Positions 2,524 through 56,434 of a stretch of DNA of 64,000 bases are shown piece by piece (the stretch's first letter is position 1; each line of letters opens with the position of its first letter). The notes under the pieces are model-generated. The model saw only the letters and a list, made by a program, of their open reading frames with translations. It ran no database searches and had not been told where the DNA came from. The translations under genes and the position numbers were made by a program. The stretch comes from Burkholderiales bacterium. Its GTDB lineage: Bacteria > Pseudomonadota > Gammaproteobacteria > Burkholderiales > SG8-39. The stretch covers positions 2,563-66,562 of the forward strand of contig DASQGW010000132.1 in NCBI GenBank assembly GCA_035632415.1. Direction: 5' to 3'.

Positions 2524-3555
2524 ATGCGCGCCGTGAATCTCCTACCCACCACCGTCGTGGGCAGCTATCCGCAGCCGAACTGGCTGATCGATCGGGCGAA
2601 GCTCGGCTCGAAGGTGCCGCGCGTGCGCGAGCCCGGGATCTGGCGCGTCGAACCGGAATTCCTGGAGCAGGCGCAGGACGATGCGACGCTGCTCGCGATC
2701 CGCGACATGGAAGCGGCTGGCCTCGACACCATCACCGACGGCGAGATGCGGCGCGAGAGCTACTCCAACCGCTTCGCCACCGCGCTGGAAGGCGTCGATA
2801 TCGTCAATCCCGGCACGACGATCAACCGCACCGGAGCGCGCTCGGTCGTGCCGCGCATCACCGGCCCCATTCGACGCAAAGCGCCGATCGAGGTGCGCGA
2901 CGTCGAGTTCCTGCGCCGCAATACCGACCGCAGGATCAAGATCACCCTGCCCGGGCCGTTCACGATGGCGCAGCAGGCGCAGGACGATTACTACAAGGAC
3001 GAGGAAGCGCTCGCCCTGGCGTATGCCGCCGCGGTGAACGAGGAGCTGAAGGACCTCAAGCGCGCCGGCGCCGACGTCGTGCAGCTCGACGAGCCCTGGC
3101 TGCAGGCACGCTCCGACCGCGCGGCGCGCTATGGCGTGAGGGCAATCAACCGTGCGCTCCAGGGCATCGAGGGCACGACCGTCGTGCATCTTTGCTTCGG
3201 CTACGCTGCCGCGGTGAAGGACAAGCCCTCGGGGTATTCCTTCCTCGGCCAGCTCGCCGATACGACCGTCTCGCAGATCTCGATCGAAGCGGCGCAGCCG
3301 CGCCTCGACCTCGCGATCGCGCGCGAGCTCGCGCCGAAGCAGGTGATGGTCGGCGTGATCGACCTCGGTACCGAGGCGGTCGAGACGACCGAGCAGGTCG
3401 CCTCGCGCATCCGCTCGGCGCTCGAGCACGTTGCCGCCGAGCGGCTGGTGGTCGCGCCGGACTGCGGCATGAAATACCTGCCGCGCGACGTCGCCTTCGG
3501 CAAGCTGAAAGCGCTTGCCGCGGGCGCGGCGCGGGTTCGAAAAGAAATCAGCTAG
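2524..3555 (+). CDS. cobalamin-independent methionine synthase family protein (MetE catalytic-domain-like)
   Basis: Starts MRAVNLLPTTVVGSYPQPNWL. Contains the Zn-ligand-type motifs VVHLCFGY and VVAPDCGMKY that are typical of the MetE C-terminal domain family. Confidence 0.85.
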   Translation: MRAVNLLPTTVVGSYPQPNWLIDRAKLGSKVPRVREPGIWRVEPEFLEQAQDDATLLAIRDMEAAGLDTITDGEMRRESYSNRFATALEGVDIVNPGTTINRTGARSVVPRITGPIRRKAPIEVRDVEFLRRNTDRRIKITLPGPFTMAQQAQDDYYKDEEALALAYAAAVNEELKDLKRAGADVVQLDEPWLQARSDRAARYGVRAINRALQGIEGTTVVHLCFGYAAAVKDKPSGYSFLGQLADTTVSQISIEAAQPRLDLAIARELAPKQVMVGVIDLGTEAVETTEQVASRIRSALEHVAAERLVVAPDCGMKYLPRDVAFGKLKALAAGAARVRKEIS

Positions 3556-9273: not shown

Positions 9274-10572
9274 CTACGACGGCCGGTAGCCGAAGAGTTT
9301 CGGCAGGAAGAGCACGATCTCCGGAATGAATGTCATGAGGGCGAGCGCGCCGATCATCACCCATAGGAACGGTAGCACCTCGCGCACGAGATCCGCCAGG
9401 CTCACTTCCCCGATCTTTACCATGAGGAACAGGAGCAAGCCGTAGGGCGGCGTCACCAGGCCGATCATGATGTTGACCACGACCACCACGCCGAAATGCA
9501 CGAGGTCGATGCCGAGCGCAGCCGCGGTGGGAAGCAGGACCGGCACGACGACGAGCAATATCGTCGTGCCTTCCAGGAAGCAGCCGAGAACGAGGAGCAG
9601 GATGTTCGCGGCCAGCAGGAACGTGAACGGAGAGAGCTCGCGCGCCTTCAGCAGGGCGGCGACCGTCTTCGGGATGTTCTCCACCGTGACCACATAGTTG
9701 AAGACCAGCGCGCCCGCGATCAGCATGCCGATCGAGATGGTGATGCGCGCGCTGCCGACGAGCGAACGGTACACGTCGCCCCAGCGCACGCTGCGATAGA
9801 GGGCGGCGGACACGAGGAGCGAGTACGCCGCCGCGGCCGCCGCGGCCTCCGTGGGCGTGGTCACGCCCGAATACAGGAGCCCGAAGAGGATCACCGGCAT
9901 CAGCAGCGCCGGGAATGCCTCTACGGTCACGCGCGGCAGCTCGCGCAGCGGCACGGCCGCCTCGACCGGAAAGTTGCGTTTCTTCGCGGTGGCGGCGATC
10001 AGCCCCATCTGCACGCCGCCGATCAGGAGGCCCGGGATGACCCCGCCGAGAAAGAGATACGCGATCGAGGTATCGGAGATCAGCGCGTACAGCACCATGG
10101 GGATCGACGGCGGGATGATCGGCCCGATGACGGAGGACACCGCGGTCAGCCCCGCGGCGAAGGCGGGCGGGTAGCGGCCATCCCGCGTCATGAGCGATTG
10201 CATCACCCTGCCCGAGCTTGCGGCGTCGGCGAGCGCCGAGCCCGACATGCCGGCGAAGATGATGCTCTGCACGACGTTGACGTGGGCAAGGCCGCCGCGC
10301 CAGCGGCCGACGAGCGCGTTACAGAAGCGCAGCAGCCGGTCCATGATGCTGCCCGAGTTCATGAATTCCGCGGCCAGGATGAACAGCGGAATCGCGAGCA
10401 GCAGGTAGCTGGAATACATGCCGTTCAGGAGCTGCTCGGCGGCGATGCCGGGATCGATGCCCTTCGCGTAGAGGTACAGGATCGAGCCGGCGATCATCGA
10501 GTGCCCGATCGGCAGGCCGAGCAGGCTCAAGCCCACGATCGCGATGAGCGCGAGGGCGAAGGCGCCCGTCAC
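9274..10572 (-). CDS. TRAP transporter large permease (DctM family)
   Basis: 432-aa polytopic membrane protein with the typical DctM sequence. Its start overlaps the DctQ stop by 4 nt. Confidence 0.9.
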   Translation of the reverse strand: MTGAFALALIAIVGLSLLGLPIGHSMIAGSILYLYAKGIDPGIAAEQLLNGMYSSYLLLAIPLFILAAEFMNSGSIMDRLLRFCNALVGRWRGGLAHVNVVQSIIFAGMSGSALADAASSGRVMQSLMTRDGRYPPAFAAGLTAVSSVIGPIIPPSIPMVLYALISDTSIAYLFLGGVIPGLLIGGVQMGLIAATAKKRNFPVEAAVPLRELPRVTVEAFPALLMPVILFGLLYSGVTTPTEAAAAAAAYSLLVSAALYRSVRWGDVYRSLVGSARITISIGMLIAGALVFNYVVTVENIPKTVAALLKARELSPFTFLLAANILLLVLGCFLEGTTILLVVVPVLLPTAAALGIDLVHFGVVVVVNIMIGLVTPPYGLLLFLMVKIGEVSLADLVREVLPFLWVMIGALALMTFIPEIVLFLPKLFGYRPS

Positions 10573-39761: not shown

Positions 39762-40052
39762 ATGGGCAAGGGCTACGTCGTCGTCACCTACCGCAAGATC
39801 ACCAACCAGGAGAAATGGCAGGCGTACGCCAAGCTCGCTGCGCCCGCGATCCAGAAGGCCGGCGGCCGCTTCATCGTGCGCGGCATGCCGTCCGCGATCC
39901 ACGAGAAGGGCATGAAGGAGCGCGTGGTGATCGTCGAGTTCGACAACGTGCACAAGGCGATGGCCGCGCACGACAGCCCCGACTACAAGAAAGCCCTCGA
40001 AGTGCTGGGCGACGGCGCCGAGCGCGACTTCAGGATCGTCGAGGGCGTCTAA
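39762..40052 (+). CDS. DUF1330 domain protein
   Basis: Starts MGKGYVVVTYRKITNQEKWQAYAKLAAPAIQKAGGRFIVRG with a GGAGG SD. Typical DUF1330 sequence. Confidence 0.8.
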   Translation: MGKGYVVVTYRKITNQEKWQAYAKLAAPAIQKAGGRFIVRGMPSAIHEKGMKERVVIVEFDNVHKAMAAHDSPDYKKALEVLGDGAERDFRIVEGV

Positions 40053-40076
40053 TTCCGGACAACGTCCGGGATTATT
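40050..40076 (+). repeat. 27-bp palindromic repeat, copy a (solo)
   Basis: Sequence taattccggacaacgtccgggattatt. It is a near-perfect palindrome, TAATTCCGGAC-aac-GTCCGGGATTA. The TAA stops of both convergent flanking genes lie within its two ends. Confidence 0.85.
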
Positions 40077-50686: not shown

Positions 50687-51381
50687 AGCCCGACGACAAG
50701 ACACTGAACGCGTATCTCGACGGCGAGCTCGACGCCCCGGCGAGCCTCGAGCTCGAGCGCGAGCTGGCGCAGAACCCGGCGCTGCGCGCCTCCTACGAGC
50801 GGATGCGCCAGCTCTCGGCAGCCGTGCGCGAGAAGGCCGAGTACTACCCCTCGCCCACGCACCACAAGCTCGCGCCCGCCGAGCGCAAGCGCTGGATCTG
50901 GCTCGCGCCGGCCTTTGCCTTCGTCCTCATCGTCGGCTTCGGCCTGGGCGTGTTCCTCGCCCAGCCGACCGAGGAGGAGCTCCTCGGCAACGAGATGATC
51001 GCGAGCCACGTGCGCGCCACGCTCTCCGGCCGGCTGATCGACGTCGCCTCCTCCGACCAGCACACGGTGAAGCCGTGGCTCTCCGCGCGCCTGCCCTTCT
51101 CGCCGATGGTCGCCGACCTCTCGCAGGAGGGCTACACGCTCGCCGGCGCGCGCCTGGACTACATCGGCGCGCAGGCGGTCGCCACGCTCGTCTACCACCG
51201 CCGCCAGCACGTGATCGACGTATTCGTCTGGCCGACCCCGAGCGAGGCGCCCAAGTCGGCCTACGCGCGCGACGGCTTCAACGTCGAGCACTTCGCGCGG
51301 AACGGCATGCGCTACTGGATCGTCTCCGACCTCAATCGCAACGAGCTCGACGACTTCACCCAGCTCCTCGCATCGAGGTAA
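50683..51381 (+). CDS. anti-sigma factor (single-pass membrane)
   Basis: ATGA overlap with the sigma gene. The N-terminus LNAYLDGELDAPASLELERELAQNPALR is followed by one transmembrane segment (WIWLAPAFAFVLIVGFGLGVFLA) and a periplasmic domain. Confidence 0.8.
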   Translation: MKPDDKTLNAYLDGELDAPASLELERELAQNPALRASYERMRQLSAAVREKAEYYPSPTHHKLAPAERKRWIWLAPAFAFVLIVGFGLGVFLAQPTEEELLGNEMIASHVRATLSGRLIDVASSDQHTVKPWLSARLPFSPMVADLSQEGYTLAGARLDYIGAQAVATLVYHRRQHVIDVFVWPTPSEAPKSAYARDGFNVEHFARNGMRYWIVSDLNRNELDDFTQLLASR

Positions 51382-52474
51382 AGATGCCCTCCGGCAGCAG
51401 CGCGCTGACGGTCACGTTCGGAACATCGACGACGTTGCTCACGCGCAGGTCCACCGCGACGCTGCAGATGACGTAGGCCTGCTCCTTCGTCCAGCCGCGC
51501 TCCTGGAGGAGCTCGATCATGTTGATGACCGCGTTCTTCGCGGCGAGCGAGAGGTCGCAGCTTTCGTTCTTCCCCTCGGGCGTGATCGGCATCCCCATCG
51601 TGGCGATGAAGTTCCGCGGCGCGGCGATTTCCGGCGGCTGGAAGAAGCCCGGATGCGAGAAGCGCGGCCAGACGATGCGCTTGGCAGCGGCCTCGCCCTT
51701 GTGGATCCTGAAGCGCACGACGCACGTCGCGCCCATCTCGATCGCCGTGCCGCAGCACTCGGAGTCGCCTTGTGCGAAGTGCGCGTCGCCCGCCGAGTAA
51801 AGACCGCCGTCGACCGCGACCGGGATGAAGAGGCGCGATCCTTTGGTGAGCTGCTTGATGTCGGCGTTGCCGCAGTTCTCGCGCGGCGGGATCGTACGCA
51901 GGCCTTCCGAGCCCACGCTGGGTGGAAAGGCGTTTTCGGGATCCGGCGGCCAGACGCGCCCGCCGCGCGCCTTCAGCTCCGCCTCGCGCGAGGCCCACTT
52001 CTTCAGCTGCTCGTGCGATGGGGCGAGCCCGGCCGTGCCCATGAACGCACCGTTCGGGATGCGCACGCCGGGAAGCTGCGGGCTGGTCGCGTACTGCGGC
52101 GTGATGTCCCAGTGCGCGACGAAGTGGTAGTCGAAGAGCTCGGGCAGGAACGCGCCGTTCGGCGCGAAGCGCGTCCAGCCGTACTTCTCGGGCACGATGT
52201 CGAGGTACTCGATCTCCAGCAGGTCGCCCGGCTTCGCGCCCTTCACGTAGACCGGGCCGGTCAGCGGGTGGGCCACGTTCCTTTGCAGCTTTTCCAGGTC
52301 GCTCGCGACCGTGTGGGGGCCGATCTGCAGGTCGTTCGCGTCGCGGGTCTCTAGGGCGACATCCTCGCCGGGCGCCACTTCGACGATGGCCGGGATATCG
52401 GGATGCCAGCGGTTGTGCCCGGTGTGCGGCTCCTCGCGCAGGCGCTTCTTTCGGTCGATGCGGACGGTCTTCAT
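51356..52474 (-). CDS. acetamidase/formamidase family protein
   Basis: Starts MKTVRIDRKKRLREEPHTGHNRWHPDIP. Contains ...NCGNADIKQL... and ...GDAHFAQGDSECCGTAIE, which are FmdA/AmdA family hallmarks. Confidence 0.9.
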   Translation of the reverse strand: MKTVRIDRKKRLREEPHTGHNRWHPDIPAIVEVAPGEDVALETRDANDLQIGPHTVASDLEKLQRNVAHPLTGPVYVKGAKPGDLLEIEYLDIVPEKYGWTRFAPNGAFLPELFDYHFVAHWDITPQYATSPQLPGVRIPNGAFMGTAGLAPSHEQLKKWASREAELKARGGRVWPPDPENAFPPSVGSEGLRTIPPRENCGNADIKQLTKGSRLFIPVAVDGGLYSAGDAHFAQGDSECCGTAIEMGATCVVRFRIHKGEAAAKRIVWPRFSHPGFFQPPEIAAPRNFIATMGMPITPEGKNESCDLSLAAKNAVINMIELLQERGWTKEQAYVICSVAVDLRVSNVVDVPNVTVSALLPEGIFTSMRGAG

Positions 52475-52488
52475 CCCACCATTTTGCT

Positions 52489-52515
52489 GAATTCCGGACA
52501 ACGTCCTTAATTATT
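52489..52515 (+). repeat. 27-bp palindromic repeat, copy b (forward)
   Basis: Sequence gaattccggacaacgtccttaattatt. Confidence 0.9.
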
Positions 52516-52524
52516 CTGGCGAGC

Positions 52525-52548
52525 TATATTTGCAGCGGGGAGGAAATG
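52525..52548 (+). promoter_or_regulatory. conserved TATAyT-GCAGCGG-GGAGG-ATG module following repeat copy b
   Basis: tatatttgcagcggggaggaaatg resembles atatactcgcagcggagggaatg at 54451-54473, which lies upstream of the substrate-binding-protein (SBP) gene. Interpreting it as -10 plus SD plus start is inference. Confidence 0.35.
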
Positions 52549-52612
52549 CCGGTGTCTGCCGGTCGAGGATCGCGCGCCCGATCGCGCGGACGAGCGATAT
52601 CCGGCCTGATCG

Positions 52613-52639
52613 AATAATTAAGGACGTTGTCCGGAATTC
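52613..52639 (-). repeat. 27-bp palindromic repeat, copy c (reverse)
   Basis: aataattaaggacgttgtccggaattc is the exact reverse complement of copy b. Confidence 0.9.
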
Positions 52640-52640
52640 C

Positions 52641-53534
52641 ATGATCCAGCGCTGGTTCGGGTTCCTGCGCCTCACCTACGCGGAGATGATCGCGCCGCTC
52701 GTCGTCGCGCTCGCCGCAGCGGGTGCGCTCGCCGTCATGCTGATCACTTGGGGACCGACGTGGGTGCCCCCGGAGTGGGCGCTGCTCACGCCGGCCATCG
52801 CCGTCATCGGGGCGAACTTCTGGGGCTGGACGGCGAGCTTCCGGCGCCTGCGCGCGCTCGAGGACGTGCCGCGCTCGCACATCGGCACTTGCGCGCAGGG
52901 CTACGCACGGCTGGAAGGACGCGCCGCTGTCTTCCCCGGCAAGCCGCTCCTCGCGCCGGTGTCCCAGCAAGCGTGCTGCTGGTATCGATACGAGCTGGTG
53001 ACTTTCGACGCCGAAGGCCACGCGCACACCGAGGCGAAGGAAGAGACCGAATGGTCCTTCGCCATGCGCGACGAGACGGCGGAGTGCATCGTCGATCCGG
53101 CCGGCGCGCAGATCTTCCCGGTGCGCGTGCAGAGCTACCGCGACAAGAGCCAGCACTGGACCGAGCACGCGATCTTCCCGGGCGACCCGATCTGCGTCGT
53201 CGGCCAGTTCACCACCGCGATCTCGGGCGTGAGCGAAGCGGAGATCGAGTTCCGCGTCGGCCAGCTCCTCGCCGAGTGGAAGCGCCACCGCCAGTACACC
53301 GAAGCCGAATGGGACGGCGTGCGTGCGCAGGCGCGGCGCGAGGTCGAGGCGGCGATGGTGCGCGAGCCGCCGCAGAACCGGATCGAGAAGCCGTCGGACG
53401 ACCGGCCCTTCATCATCACCGCCGAGGCGCGCGACGACCTCGAGCGCGACCTCCTCATCTGGGCGTGGATCCACGCCTCGTGCTTCGTCGGCGGCGTCGC
53501 GATGCTGGCCTGGCTGTATTTCCGCTTCCTTTGA
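52641..53534 (+). CDS. membrane protein, GIDE-like (tentative)
   Basis: Starts MIQRWFGFLRLTYAEM. Two N-terminal transmembrane segments and one C-terminal segment flank a central soluble domain (...GYARLEGRA...CCWYRYEL...). The family assignment comes from remembered architecture only. Confidence 0.7.
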   Translation: MIQRWFGFLRLTYAEMIAPLVVALAAAGALAVMLITWGPTWVPPEWALLTPAIAVIGANFWGWTASFRRLRALEDVPRSHIGTCAQGYARLEGRAAVFPGKPLLAPVSQQACCWYRYELVTFDAEGHAHTEAKEETEWSFAMRDETAECIVDPAGAQIFPVRVQSYRDKSQHWTEHAIFPGDPICVVGQFTTAISGVSEAEIEFRVGQLLAEWKRHRQYTEAEWDGVRAQARREVEAAMVREPPQNRIEKPSDDRPFIITAEARDDLERDLLIWAWIHASCFVGGVAMLAWLYFRFL

Positions 53535-53546
53535 GAGAGTCCTCCC

Positions 53547-53576
53547 GTCGTCCCCGCGCAGGCGGGGACCCCGTTT
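53547..53576 (+). repeat. left 30-bp inverted repeat (self-hairpin) flanking GIY-YIG remnant
   Basis: gtcgtccccgcgcaggcggggaccccgttt contains an internal hairpin, tccccgc-gcag-gcgggga. Confidence 0.85.
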
Positions 53577-53582
53577 AGAAAA

Positions 53583-53785
53583 TTAGAAAGCCTGTGCGGA
53601 GAGGTCTTTCCATTCGGGATTCATCTCCTCGATGAGCCGGATCTTCCATGCGCGGTTCCACTTCTTGAGTCGCTTCTCTCTCCGCTGCGATGCGCCTCGA
53701 TGCGAGCGGCCAGATTGCCTGTTACGCCTATGTACAGCGTTCCATAGGGTTCGCTGGCATTTGGGGAGCAACGCACTCGTGTCGA
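53583..53785 (-). pseudogene. GIY-YIG nuclease family gene remnant (internal deletion + frameshift)
   Basis: Two frames each hold part of the family sequence:
- One frame gives ...ASEPYGTLYIGVTGNLAARIEAHRSGE, the GIY-YIG N-terminal motif.
- A different frame gives REKRLKKWNRAWKIRLIEEMNPEWKDL, the family C-terminus.
- The roughly 35 aa normally found between them are missing. Confidence 0.6.
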
Positions 53786-53809
53786 CGGGCGTTGACCCTA
53801 AAAAAAGAC

Positions 53810-53839
53810 AAACGGGGTCCCCGCCTTCGCGGGGACGAC
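53810..53839 (-). repeat. right 30-bp inverted repeat flanking GIY-YIG remnant
   Basis: aaacggggtccccgccttcgcggggacgac is the reverse complement of the left repeat with one mismatch. Confidence 0.85.
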
Positions 53840-53852
53840 CATCGAAGCGTCC

Positions 53853-54389
53853 CTAGTCGAAACGCAGGAGCTCGCGCTCGCCGAAGCCGAAGGCGCGAGC
53901 GACGATCAGCTCCGGGAACTGCTCGACGCGCGTATTGTTGATGTTGACGCTGTCGTTGTAGAACTCGCGCCGGTCGGCGATGGCGTTCTCGAGCTCGGTG
54001 ATGCGCCGCTGGAGCTGGAGGAAGTTCTCGTTCGCCTTGAGCTCGGGATAGGCTTCGGCCAGGACGAAGATCCGCGCCACGCCGGCGCGCAGCGCGGCCT
54101 CCGCCGGGCCGAGCGCGGCCATGTCCTGCGCCTCGCGCGCCTGCGCCACGCGCGTGCGCGCTTCGGCCACCCGCACCAGCGTGTCGCGCTCGAAGTCGCG
54201 GTAGGCCTTGCACACTTCGACGAGGCGCGGGATCTCGTCGTGCCGCTGCTTGAGGAGCACGTCGATGTTGGCCCACGCCCGCGCCACGTTGTTCTTCACC
54301 GTGACAAGTCCGTTGTAGACCATGATGGCCTGGACGATGGCCACCACCGCCACCGCAGCGAGCACCACCAGCAGGACCTGTCCGACCAT
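53853..54389 (-). CDS. LemA family protein
   Basis: Starts MVGQVLLVVLAAVAVVAIVQAIMVYNGLV, a transmembrane segment. Then ...NIDVLLKQRHDEIPRLVE...FYNDSVNINNTRVEQFP... follows, which is the LemA signature. Confidence 0.85.
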   Translation of the reverse strand: MVGQVLLVVLAAVAVVAIVQAIMVYNGLVTVKNNVARAWANIDVLLKQRHDEIPRLVEVCKAYRDFERDTLVRVAEARTRVAQAREAQDMAALGPAEAALRAGVARIFVLAEAYPELKANENFLQLQRRITELENAIADRREFYNDSVNINNTRVEQFPELIVARAFGFGERELLRFD

Positions 54390-54406
54390 GCGGGGCGAAG
54401 CGTACC

Positions 54407-54433
54407 GAATTCCGGACGACGTCCTTAATTTTT
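54407..54433 (+). repeat. 27-bp palindromic repeat, copy d (forward)
   Basis: gaattccggacgacgtccttaattttt has 2 mismatches to copy b. Confidence 0.9.
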
Positions 54434-54450
54434 CGATTCCTGAGGCGGGC

Positions 54451-54473
54451 ATATACTCGCAGCGGAGGGAATG
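54451..54473 (+). promoter_or_regulatory. conserved TATAyT-GCAGCGG-GGAGG-ATG module upstream of SBP gene
   Basis: atatactcgcagcggagggaatg ends in the ATG of the 54471 CDS and is similar to 52525-52548. Confidence 0.35.
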
Positions 54474-55472
54474 AATGGGCGGCATCCAATAAGAATTACG
54501 TACTTGGTACGAAACTTCCTGTTGCTGGTCCTCCTCGCCCCGCTCGCTGCGGTGGCACAGCAGCCCAAGATCTACCGCATCGCGGTCCTCGAGCGCGATG
54601 CTTCCGGACAGACCGGGCCGAACTTCGCCGCCCTGAGGCAAGGGTTCCGGGAGCTCGGCTACGTCGAGGGCCGGAACATCGCCATCGGCTACCGCGCGAG
54701 CGATGGCGACGACGCCCGCTACCCGGCGCTCTGCGCGGACGCCGTGAAGCTCGAGGCGGATCTCATCGTCGTGCGCGGCGCGGCCGGAGCCGCGGCGTGC
54801 CGCAAGGCGACGAGCTCGATCCCCATCATCTTCACCGGCGTGGCCGACCCGGTGGCGCGCGGGCTGGTGGCGGACGTCGGGCGCCCCGGCGGCAACGTCA
54901 CCGGGATCATGTTCCCCTCGGGGCCGATCGTGACGGCAGCGCGCCTCGAGCTCCTGAGACAGGTGTTCCCGAAGATCACGCGCATCGCGGCGATGATGAA
55001 CCTGGGCGGGCCCGAGCTCGGACGCGCCCGCCAGCAGCTCGAAAGCGCGGGCCGCGACTTCGGCATCAGCGTGGAGGTCTTCGACGTGCGCTCTCTGGTC
55101 GACTTGCGGACTGCGTTCGCGCAGGCCGCGAACGAGCGGCTCGAGGCCGTCTATGTGGTGGGCGATGCCCTGATGGAAGCGAACCGCAAGCTCGTCGGCG
55201 ATCTCGGCCTCAGGCACGGCCTGCCCACGATGACCGCGGAATCGAGTTTCGTGGAAGCGGGGAGCCTTCTTTCCTACGGGACCGACACCTCAGCGCAGTA
55301 CAAGCGCGTGCCGGCCATCGCCGACCGGATCTTCAGGGGCGGCAAGCCGGCCGAGATCCCGGTGGAGCGACCCACGCTCTTCAGCGTGGCGGTGAACCTG
55401 AAGACCGCCAAGGCGCTCGGCGCGAGGGTGCCGAGGTACGTGCTCTCGCGCGCCGACCGTGTAATCCAATAA
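54471..55472 (+). CDS. ABC transporter substrate-binding protein (COG2984/ABC_sub_bind-like), orphan
   Basis: Has a signal peptide. Contains ...KIYRIAVLE...LRQGFRELGYVEGRNI.., ...PIIFTGVADPV..GLV....PGGNVTG and C-terminal ...NLKTAKALG. There are no adjacent permease or ATPase genes. The TAA stop lies inside repeat copy e. Confidence 0.85.
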   Translation: MNGRHPIRITYLVRNFLLLVLLAPLAAVAQQPKIYRIAVLERDASGQTGPNFAALRQGFRELGYVEGRNIAIGYRASDGDDARYPALCADAVKLEADLIVVRGAAGAAACRKATSSIPIIFTGVADPVARGLVADVGRPGGNVTGIMFPSGPIVTAARLELLRQVFPKITRIAAMMNLGGPELGRARQQLESAGRDFGISVEVFDVRSLVDLRTAFAQAANERLEAVYVVGDALMEANRKLVGDLGLRHGLPTMTAESSFVEAGSLLSYGTDTSAQYKRVPAIADRIFRGGKPAEIPVERPTLFSVAVNLKTAKALGARVPRYVLSRADRVIQ

Positions 55473-55494
55473 TTAAGGACGTTGTCCGGAATTC
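55468..55494 (-). repeat. 27-bp palindromic repeat, copy e (reverse)
   Basis: aataattaaggacgttgtccggaattc is identical to copy c. Confidence 0.9.
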
Positions 55495-55495
55495 A

Positions 55496-55702
55496 CTAGC
55501 GCCGGCCGGCGGCGACGCGCCGCACGTCCTCGTCGGTGATGAGGTCCACCAGGCGGAGGAAGATGTTGCGCGGCAGCTCGTGCTGGCTTTCCCAGGCCGA
55601 GAAGTCGTGCTCGCTCGCGCCGAGGAAGGTGCGCACCTTTTCCTCGCCGCCGAGGATCTCGGTGGCGCGCTTCAGCGCGCGAGTATGGATGTCATGAAGC
55701 AC
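55496..55702 (-). CDS. small hypothetical protein (68 aa)
   Basis: The ORF sits between repeat copies e and f. No family was recognised, and a vague resemblance to antitoxin-type helical domains is not supported. Confidence 0.45.
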   Translation of the reverse strand: MLHDIHTRALKRATEILGGEEKVRTFLGASEHDFSAWESQHELPRNIFLRLVDLITDEDVRRVAAGRR

Positions 55703-55835
55703 GAGCCCTCCCCAGAGCTGTGTTCAACAGTTCGATGCGTGGAATTGAAACGAGCGCACGAAGAATGCATCGCGCCGCGCGCGGCGTCAATGACTCGCAA
55801 TGAAAAAATATTTTTCGTTGCTCCGGCGCTACTTC

Positions 55836-55862
55836 AGATTCCGGACAACGTCCTTGATTCTT
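55836..55862 (+). repeat. 27-bp palindromic repeat, copy f (forward, degenerate)
   Basis: Sequence agattccggacaacgtccttgattctt. Confidence 0.8.
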
Positions 55863-55912
55863 GAGCGGCATCAAATTGCGCCGGAGGCAGCACTTGCTTA
55901 CTCCGCGCCGCC

Positions 55913-56308
55913 ATGGACGATCGTTCGTTGTGGCAGCTCCTCGCGGCGAATGCGGCAGCGCTTGCTATCGCCTGGGCGCTGGACCTCTCGATCGGCAGCG
56001 TCGTGATCGGCGCCATGCAGGTCATCCGCATCGCAAGGCTCCGCCGGTTCGTGCCCGACCTCGGTGCTCCACCTGGTCTATCTCATCTTCATCCTGGTCG
56101 CCACGGGAGGGAACGTCGGCGATCCTTTCGCGCTCCTTGCATGCGGCGCCGCCTTTCTCCTGCATCACGCGCTTAAGCTGCGGCCATGATCCTGACGGGC
56201 GCGATTTTCTGGGGTGACGCGGGTCCTGGGGGATGCTGCTCTTCGGCGCGCTCAAGACCCTCGCCGACGCGCTGATGCAATTCCGTACCAAGTACGGAAC
56301 TCGATAAT
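55913..56308 (+). pseudogene. frameshifted small multi-TM membrane protein gene
   Basis: Hydrophobic segments continue across at least three frames: ...LAIAWALDLSIGSVVIGAM..., then VLHLVYLIFILVATGGNVGDPFALLACGAAFLL..., then MLLFGALKTLADAL... No single frame is open across the region. Confidence 0.4.
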
Positions 56309-56329
56309 TAAGGACGTCGTCCGGAATTC
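56303..56329 (-). repeat. 27-bp palindromic repeat, copy g (reverse)
   Basis: Sequence gataattaaggacgtcgtccggaattc. Confidence 0.85.
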
Positions 56330-56434
56330 GCGACATCCTGCGAAATGACGTGCGGGTGAACGTCTACAACTTCTGACATGGACCCGTATTCGCAGGTACG
56401 CTACGCTGCCAGCGTCAATCTAGGGGAGACGGCG

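Follow-up and report, generated by a model that had tools for sequence, protein, structure and literature searches.

The window analysed here is a stretch of 64,000 nt (C132:2563-66562) from the Burkholderiales bacterium assembly GCA_035632415.1, hereafter G000 (4.08 Mb, 228 contigs, 66.5% GC, 94.7% complete). Between positions 52489 and 56329 it carries a cluster of 27-bp palindromic repeats, described in an initial annotation as six copies arranged in three inward-facing pairs, and our subject is the nature of these repeats and of the transposase that may have spread them. A scan of the window with the pattern AATTNNGGACNNNGTCCNNAATT, allowing up to 2 mismatches and with the chance level taken from shuffles, returned seven matches against 0.01 expected. 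Six of them, at 52490, 52616, 54408, 55471, 55837 and 56306, are the copies already described, and the seventh lies at 40051. The reported consensus, the 97 bp within the first pair and the GAATTC at five outer ends all hold. So do the identities between copies: the copy at 52613 is the exact reverse complement of that at 52489 and is identical to that at 55468, the letters assigned to them originally being apparently shifted by one.

The repeats come in two sub-types, A (AATTCC-GGAC-AAC-GTCC-TTAATT) and B (AATTCC-GTAC-CAA-GTAC-GTAATT), and in both we distinguish an outer (CC) and an inner (TT) side. All seven pattern matches are of type A. Copy a (52489..52515, +; GAATTCCGGACAACGTCCTTAATTATT) has on its outer side, 14 nt away, the start codon of an acetamidase/formamidase gene (51356..52474, -), and copy b (52613..52639, -) is followed 2 nt past its outer side by the ATG of a GIDE-like membrane protein gene. 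The latter opens a block (52641..54389) comprising the GIDE-like gene (+), a GIY-YIG remnant and a LemA gene (-), whose start codon lies 17 nt from the outer side of copy c (54407..54433, +; GAC loop). Copy d (55468..55494, -) contains the TAA stop codon (55470-55472) of a gene for an ABC_sub_bind substrate-binding protein (SBP; 54471..55472, +), and a convergent 68-aa gene (55496..55702, -) has its stop 2 nt past the outer end of the same copy. Copy e (55836..55862, +) is degenerate (GATT...TTGATT), and copy f (56303..56329, -) again has a GAC loop. The seventh copy (40051..40073, +; C132:42613), slightly degenerate in sequence (AATTCCGGACAACGTCCGGGATT), constitutes the entire spacer between two convergent genes and is overlapped by both of their stop codons (offsets -2/-2).

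Scanning the whole genome brought to light two B-type copies in the same 4 kb that had been overlooked. One (54494..54516, -; AGTTTCGTACCAAGTACGTAATT) forms a doublet with copy c at an 86-bp offset, and the other (56279..56301, +; AATTCCGTACCAAGTACGGAACT) stands a 4-nt spacer away from copy f, with which it makes up a tight inverted doublet. The full list for this segment consists of three inverted doublets (52490/52616, 54408/54494 and 56279/56306) and two single copies (55471 and 55837). The positions behind the original three-pair picture are correct; what does not stand is a dedicated pair around the SBP gene and another around a broken membrane-protein gene, and because the copy list was incomplete the picture is largely incidental. 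For the broken gene itself the sequence agrees with the original call, its frame being split across open reading frames at 55913-56176, 56064-56189 and 56214-56348. The same broken frame (55913-56300, from copy e to the 56279/56306 doublet) is present in a second sample. The apparent cassettes are the look of a local cluster with copies in every intergenic gap, and they do not count as evidence of dedicated mobile units.

A genome-wide count, one of the checks proposed at the outset, identifies the motif as a dispersed family (family 1) of 107-115 sites. The 4.08 Mb of G000 contain 107 sites at up to 2 mismatches, as against 0 for a reversed control pattern, and 115 at up to 3 substitutions, about 84 of them type A and about 31 type B. 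Information content is high from -1 to +25 (T-AATTCCGGACAACGTCCTTAATT-ATT) and at background on both sides, as expected of a discrete unit of ~27 bp; a longer element, such as a miniature inverted-repeat transposable element (MITE) or the end of an insertion sequence (IS), was ruled out by the background level beyond 27 bp. The 23-bp core is identical in 38 copies, non-symmetric positions included, and this near-identity argues for recent spread. The two sub-types differ by a compensatory change in the stem: at pair 8-16, 78 copies have G-C, 30 have T-A and only 2 are one-sided hybrids (4 mismatches in all); pairs 7-17 and 10-14 do not vary, and Watson-Crick pairing is found at pairs 1-4 and 7-10 in 104-115 of the 115 copies. 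In five chains, copies stand exactly 19 bp apart and have one AATT in common. These are short (20-40 nt), imperfect, hairpin-forming palindromes, and they are both numerous and extragenic, in all of which they resemble repetitive extragenic palindromic (REP) sequences.

Some copies in G000 (for example C197:53, C24:10522, C106:3335, C178:7346) also show short tandem duplications at one edge, sometimes with a few flanking bases, as in CCTAATTCCGGG|CCTAATTCCGG, GACAATTCCG|CGACAATTCCGG and CTTAATTATT|CTTAATTATTC; these may be footprints of slippage or of abortive processing.

The initial annotation had also suggested looking for a transposase elsewhere in the genome. G000 has three Pfam Y1_Tnp genes, and one of them, on contig C49 (9596-10321, -), lies between B-type copies at 9572 (+) and 10362 (-) whose TT sides face inward, its TAA stop codon (...LLTE*) falling inside a flanking copy. 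The 242-aa product contains an HVH (HUH) motif and YRYIERNPVRAG, with a YRYIERNPV motif. Among NCBIfam models its best hit is to NF047646, "REP-associated tyrosine transposase" (RAYT; E = 1.6e-17); on Pfam Y1_Tnp, for which the cut-off is 23, its score is 48.7 bits. When a profile of four homologs was searched against the PDB, Escherichia coli TnpA_REP (4ER8) ranked first (E = 0.003), ahead of IS200/IS605 transposases. All four aligned homologs have HVH and Y(R)YIE(R)NPVRA unchanged, and these motifs align to HMH and YIYINPV of 4ER8, so that both the HUH motif and the catalytic tyrosine of the IS200/RAYT fold can be recognized. Each of the other two Y1 genes has an inverted flanking repeat of its own: that at C124:12206-13045 is accompanied by GGGGACGGAGCCCTAAC, dispersed in ~20-28 copies, and that at C171:5824-6590 by GGGGTCAGAGCAATTTTCCTGTAAC, with ~86-90 copies, mostly as (+,-) doublets ~45 bp apart. 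Since all three genes have their own dispersed repeats, the genome hosts three REP/RAYT-type systems.

The association between repeat and transposase recurs in other species. Family 1 occurs in 5 of 25 genomes of the genus and is absent from all 16 sampled genomes of other families of the order. When all species representatives were scanned, it was multi-copy only in about a dozen metagenome-assembled genomes of uncultured Burkholderiales/Betaproteobacteria; the single matches found elsewhere are probably due to chance. In the genome G017 an ortholog with 62% identity (contig C10) is flanked by that genome's own variant of the repeat at 3479 (+) and 4274 (-), and it again ends in LLTE* inside the repeat beside the same Cys-rich neighbour gene as in G000. 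The SMAG_U1277 ortholog is flanked on both sides (2891, +; 3682, -), and that of SMAG_U2767 has one adjacent copy, with a second beyond a ParB-like gene. The same GST-like, Cys-rich and ParB-like neighbours are found in all four genomes, and the repeat beside each gene is the variant of its own genome. In G003 a partial ortholog at a contig end (C240) runs into a repeat doublet, and its stop is the TAA loop. Thus the Y1 gene is flanked by inverted copies of its own repeat in G000, G017 and SMAG_U1277, and G000 has a single family-1 transposase gene, vertically inherited and syntenic. Because paralogs with 53-56% identity are present in genomes that lack family 1, co-occurrence of transposase and repeat judged solely by identity is not decisive; the decisive evidence is the flanking arrangement.

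Repeat variants differ between genomes. Loops are genome-specific (GTAC-CCG-GTAC in G017, GTAC-TAA-GTAC in G003, GTAC-GAA-GTAC in G014), and the GGAC/GTCC stem is confined to G000 and G006. The latter has two paralogs of the transposase, one flanked by AATTC-GGGGCCAGGGTC-GTAATTATTC (27 nt, a perfect inverted repeat) and the other by tandem AATTC-GGGGTCAGGGCC-GCAATT units, so that both have the arms of family 1 with different cores. Doublets at 24-25-bp offsets are numerous in G003, where tight inverted doublets fold as one long hairpin (-12.6 kcal/mol). Of the family-1 copies, only about 10-12 per master have a further 8-12 bases on the inner side in common with sequence adjacent to the transposase gene, against 0-1 for an outer-side control.

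The initial annotation had offered three explanations for the repeats, a REP/BIME-like family (BIME, bacterial interspersed mosaic element), terminal inverted repeats of mobile cassettes, and operator sites, and had allowed that they might turn out to be the known ends of an annotated element. This last is essentially what was found, in that copies flank a transposase gene, and together with the dispersed intergenic distribution it supports the first explanation. To judge from sequence, the family has the structural features of a REP/RAYT system, and we propose that the 27-bp palindromes are very probably REP-type repeats, which a Y1 (HUH) transposase of the RAYT/TIRYT class, dedicated to them and encoded by a single-copy gene, spreads and maintains.

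The arrangement of neighbouring copies bears on the second explanation, according to which copies are terminal inverted repeats and each inward pair moves as a unit with the DNA that it encloses (the 97 bp, the SBP gene or the membrane-protein gene). Inverted neighbours less than 400 bp apart do tend to have their TT sides inward, with 12 (+,-) pairs against 2 (-,+) (p = 0.013), and the transposase gene itself has this geometry. The REP-transposase-REP unit is moreover inverted between genomes (C49:9572-10384 in G000, L017:1433-2250 in G017), and these opposite orientations imply inversion between the flanking inverted copies. One trace of cassette behaviour comes from G003 (C84), in which the acetamidase and 68-aa genes are ~95 bp apart, separated by a gap with a GGGGACGGAGCCC (family-2-like) motif; in G000 about 3 kb (52516-55467; the GIDE-like gene, GIY-YIG remnant, LemA and SBP genes), bounded by the inverted copies a and d, lies between them. 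Synteny with relatives breaks at copy a. The neighbours of the acetamidase gene, which is itself 75-83% identical in relatives, differ in every one of them, so the 3 kb may owe their presence or absence to nothing more than an ordinary rearrangement where the genome is variable; it may have occurred at the repeats, rather than by transposition of a cassette. The GIDE-like and LemA genes are convergent and are kept in relatives without family-1 repeats. The two missed copies alter the pairing, every pair encloses unique sequence with neither a common interior nor a repeated passenger (the enclosed sequences are unrelated and often small real genes, for example for an HNH protein or a ribbon-helix-helix protein), conservation stops at ~27 bp, most copies are single and no target duplication is seen at the flanks. 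Cassettes of the kind originally envisaged, MITE-like or otherwise bounded by terminal inverted repeats, are therefore a highly improbable account of the family.

Inverted sites of ~27 bp that alternate around single genes, as they do in the window, also recall pdif sites, at which XerC/XerD act and which bracket gene modules on Acinetobacter plasmids; we took this comparison only as a lead. Dif-like sites consist of two 11-bp arms and a 6-bp centre. The repeats have 10-nt arms and a 3-nt centre, there are 115 chromosomal copies of them, and they are associated with a Y1 HUH transposase instead of a tyrosine recombinase. That they are site-specific recombination sites delimiting modules is effectively refuted by the site geometry, and we give that reading almost no weight.

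The position of the repeats relative to genes, as called by a codon-bias caller built for G000 (4,216 genes, 93% coding), is informative in a different way. All but two copies (113 of 115) are intergenic. Convergent junctions account for 46% of repeat-bearing gaps (48 of the 105 classified) as compared with 13.5% of all gaps (chi-square p = 3e-21), and divergent gaps for 12% (13 of the 105). Such a distribution over gene junctions is as known for REPs and the opposite of an operator regulon. A family of sites for a dimeric transcription factor or a nucleoid-associated protein, kept by selection and not by transposition, would be consistent with a 23-bp near-palindromic core with AT-rich arms, and three window genes do start 2-17 nt from a copy. 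Against it stand the scarcity of copies between divergent starts, the 38 cores that are identical even at asymmetric positions, the absence of family 1 from 19 of 24 genomes of the genus, the variation between species in whether an orthologous junction is filled or empty, and the recurrence of copies on either side of a transposase gene in several species. We regard the operator reading as extremely improbable.

A stop codon lies inside or within 15 nt of 81 of 113 copies; 66 copies hold at least one flanking stop codon in the 23-bp core, and 85 genes, or ~2% of all genes in the genome, end inside a copy. On the outer side the stop offsets are -2 (TAA with the AATT arm, n = 34), -1 (TGA, n = 10) and -21 (n = 15), and on the inner side -2 (n = 21), -6 (n = 3) and -1 (n = 2). 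With stops available on both sides, a single copy can end both genes of a convergent pair. The 15 genes at offset -21 (for example C49:7766-7939) acquire a repeat-encoded C-terminal tail, ...NSGQRP* (AAT TCC GGA CAA CGT CCT TAA). TAATT words that are not part of a repeat number 34 on stop codons, 84 elsewhere in intergenic DNA and 123 in coding sequence. These counts are compatible with targeting combined with purging of coding insertions, without proving it, and target availability was not accepted as the full explanation of the overlap with stops.

It is also possible to read this pattern as a sign that the copies are gene-end signals kept by the host, whether weak bidirectional terminators, mRNA 3'-end stabilisers or insulators, now immobile and with the transposase a relic. 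Besides the proximity to stop codons, the outer side faces a gene end in ~75% of copies, and of the copies between tandem genes 30 point the same way as the genes and 14 do not (p = 0.023). A loose terminator scan picks up the B-type copy at 54494-54516, read from CC to TT, in keeping with this orientation bias and with a possible role as a weak terminator. At a given convergent junction the resident hairpin family can differ from one species to another, and REPs have been reported to affect mRNA stability and termination (PMC3733652). Yet the stems are of only 4-5 bp with weak predicted energies, the near-identity of 38 copies implies recent spread, and the transposase frame is intact and conserved in four species. 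As a substitute for transposition we consider the gene-end reading very unlikely; as a description of what copies may do once in place it complements a REP/RAYT origin and does not exclude it.

We infer the mobility of the repeats from comparisons between species, in which 12 convergent-gene junctions of G000 were set against genomes of the same genus. At the C170 junction an A-type copy is present in G000 and G006, and ~36 bp are lacking in G017, G007, G015, G023 and G003. The two genes overlap at their 3' ends where the site is empty, and where it is filled each ends on a repeat-supplied TAA with an altered C-terminal tail. Junctions on C128 and C51 likewise vary among species between the filled and the empty state. 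The cleanest case is C153, where the empty site of G003 reads ...CTC TGAATT|CGGAGCC and the filled site of G000 reads ...CTC TGAATT|CCGGACGACGTCCTTAATTATTCTGTAAGGCTGTA|CGCGGCT. Here the AATT was pre-existing and overlaps the TGA stop, and the 35-nt insert directly follows it with no duplication; the inner end of the insert (ATTCTGTAAGG) matches sequence beside the transposase-proximal copy. C51, C37 and C163 are junctions at which the occupant differs between species: it may be a family-1 copy with a changed offset or turned the other way round, an AT-armed palindrome of another kind, or a GGGGTCAG doublet. These junctions are re-used hot spots. The site of window copy d can also be compared, reading tGAATTCgaCTAGCG in G003 and ...GTCCGGAATTCaCTAGCG in G000.

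From these cases we propose, by analogy with IS200/IS605 elements, that the Y1 transposase would recognize the single-stranded hairpin and would cut and join beside the AATT arm, inserting the unit 3' of AATT without target duplication. Insertion next to AATT would explain the 19-bp chains in which neighbouring copies have one AATT in common. In a genome of 66.5% GC, insertion-tolerant (T)AATT words would be found largely at TAA and TGA stop codons, and copies would on that account build up where genes end, most of all at convergent junctions. The TAA words of the repeat would then replace or restate stop codons, sometimes rewriting a few C-terminal residues, and a co-oriented hairpin with its T-rich tail may act as a weak terminator.

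A number of observations weigh against the proposed REP/RAYT system or parts of it. The insertion model is held with moderate confidence because the empty sites at C170 and C128 have no intact AATT, and because the inserts at C153, C170 and C128 measure 35-37 nt, exceeding the conserved unit by some 10-13 nt, in every case on the inner side. (Save for partial matches to the transposase-proximal flanks, the additional bases show no conservation from copy to copy.) Predicted single-stranded hairpins are weak when taken singly, at -2.8 kcal/mol for type A and -3.9 kcal/mol for type B. The unpaired GTAG/CGTC end tag of the described REP super-families is lacking, both ends being AATT, and CGTC is found only inside the A-type stem/loop; we treat this as a difference from those super-families and not as a test of association with a RAYT. 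As for the transposase, its 63.7 bits on NF047646 fall short of the 80-bit equivalog cut-off and a single-sequence search of the PDB gave no match, and the protein is a distant and longer relative, possibly of the TIRYT type. The commonest sub-type, A, flanks no transposase gene in G000 or G006, and we assume that its mobiliser acts in trans or is missing from the 94.7%-complete assembly. Copy orientation shows no bias relative to local GC skew (p = 0.66), the assembly being fragmented. Finally, in a near-identical strain from another sample (one contig retrieved by exact-protein look-up, with 2 single-nucleotide differences in 2.7 kb) every copy is unchanged; a second exact-protein look-up for population polymorphism gave no match.

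Comparison with characterized systems places the family within known territory and also sets it apart. The E. coli REPtron, REP/BIME sequences with TnpA_REP, is reportedly the subject of studies by Nunvar (2010), Ton-Hoang (2012) and Messing (2012; PDB 4ER8). Like it, family 1 consists of short imperfect extragenic palindromes in ~100 or more copies and includes a single-copy Y1 HUH gene with inverted flanking copies, for which 4ER8 is the nearest structure by profile, with HxH and Y-x-x-NPV aligned. Unlike it, family 1 has AATT at both ends and no GTAG, a stem of only 4-5 bp plus AT arms, a protein of ~240 aa instead of 165 aa, and copies that in G000 are mostly single and not in BIME arrays. 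The REPIN-RAYT systems of Pseudomonas, said to have been described by Bertels and Rainey (2011), share with it a single-copy syntenic transposase, genome-specific sequence variants, several paralogs each with its own repeat family (three in G000) and tight inverted doublets such as those of G003. In contrast, the spacers within inverted pairs of G000 are unrelated, at 4-315 bp, and single copies predominate, so that the doublet is not evidently the replicating unit. More generally, RAYTs are single-copy, syntenic, vertically inherited and repeat-specific genes (PMC5581495, Bertels et al. 2017).

TIRtrons, whose RAYT-like genes (TIRYTs) are flanked by repeats without GTAG, are exemplified by Stenotrophomonas maltophilia ORF 1152 with its self-complementary terminal inverted repeats (PMC3733652, Di Nocera et al. 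2013). They resemble our systems in having untagged flanking repeats and moderately abundant families, and family 3 in G000 (GGGGTCAG..., gene on C171) and the flanks of G006:C34 fit their GGGGWSAS motif. Family 1 differs from them in lacking GGGGWSAS and in forming a 23-27-nt hairpin in place of a long terminal inverted repeat. The termini of GTAG REPs are also known to overlap coding regions and to supply TAG stop codons (PMC3733652), as the ends of family 1 do, except that here TAA and TGA come from AATT arms on both sides and 85 genes are affected. As a model of mechanism only, IS200/IS605 elements (IS608, ISDra2) offer a Y1 HUH enzyme, hairpins near the ends and insertion 3' of a short word without duplication, as at C153; the repeats, unlike these elements, carry no transposase, are ~27 nt long and show no detectable GC-skew orientation bias, and their chemistry is taken over from the model. 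REPtrons, TIRtrons, multiple repeat-specific transposases in one genome and stop-supplying REP ends have thus all been published (PMC3733652). Family 1 departs from known REP/RAYT systems in its AATT arms, its longer and divergent transposase, the predominance of single copies in G000 and a dominant sub-type that flanks no transposase.

REP/RAYT systems are widespread but well studied in only a few gammaproteobacteria, and how REPs move is still unproven. To our knowledge, transposition of a REP by its RAYT has not been reconstituted in any instance. The present analysis, of an uncultured Burkholderiales lineage from soil, adds an untagged, AATT-armed hairpin, transposase paralogs whose repeats share arms and differ in cores, and one clean pair of filled and empty sites pointing to insertion beside a 4-nt word without duplication. 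A more speculative idea, which we think possible although rather doubtful, is that the AATT arms are a cleavage and target tag shared by several RAYT paralogs, in the role of GTAG, and that the GC core confers paralog specificity. Insertion 3' of (T)AATT, mostly stop codons in a GC-rich genome, might then make the repeat a self-installing gene-end module that separates overlapping convergent genes, gives each a new stop and is re-used by rival hairpin families. If this were true, the lineage would provide a natural system for demonstrating targeted REP transposition. AT arms around a GC core recur across families of the lineage. At junctions occupied by family 1 in G000, AT-armed palindromes of G017 were also noted, namely AAATAGGGACAGACCCTATTT, an inverted doublet, and AAATGGTGAC-T-GTCACCATTT (G017:C25, G017:C43).

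For annotation, the practical consequence is that gene-end and start calls near the repeats need care, with stops supplied by repeats, tails encoded by repeats and one probable signal peptide that contains residues encoded by a repeat. This last concerns the SBP gene of the window, within whose frame the B-type copy at 54494-54516 lies if ATG 54471 is the start; if TTG 54522 is used, the copy lies 5 nt upstream. The public gene call takes ATG 54471 (333 aa), with the copy translated as ...HPIRITYLVRNF..., and the alternative gives a protein without the repeat-encoded region. If the ATG is used, HPIRITYLVRNF is probably the positively charged start of a plausible SBP signal peptide.

Searches for other elements in the neighbourhood gave little. 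No RNA family was matched by Rfam between 51000 and 58000 at E values up to 1, and no promoter-like site was returned by a promoter scan; the idea that the inner flanks of copies a and c hold a promoter or a sigma-54 site was set aside on the same scan and on spacing judged unfit by eye. The GIY-YIG remnant (53583-53771, -) lies between GTCCCCGC...GCGGGGAC palindromes. On either side of it, at 53545-53600 and 53798-53845, are GTCCCCGCGCAGGCGGGGAC-type palindromes, and across many genomes of the genus these stretches of ~35-135 bp find dozens of matches with 80-100% identity. They have the look of a further repeat family, which may be linked to small GIY-YIG genes.

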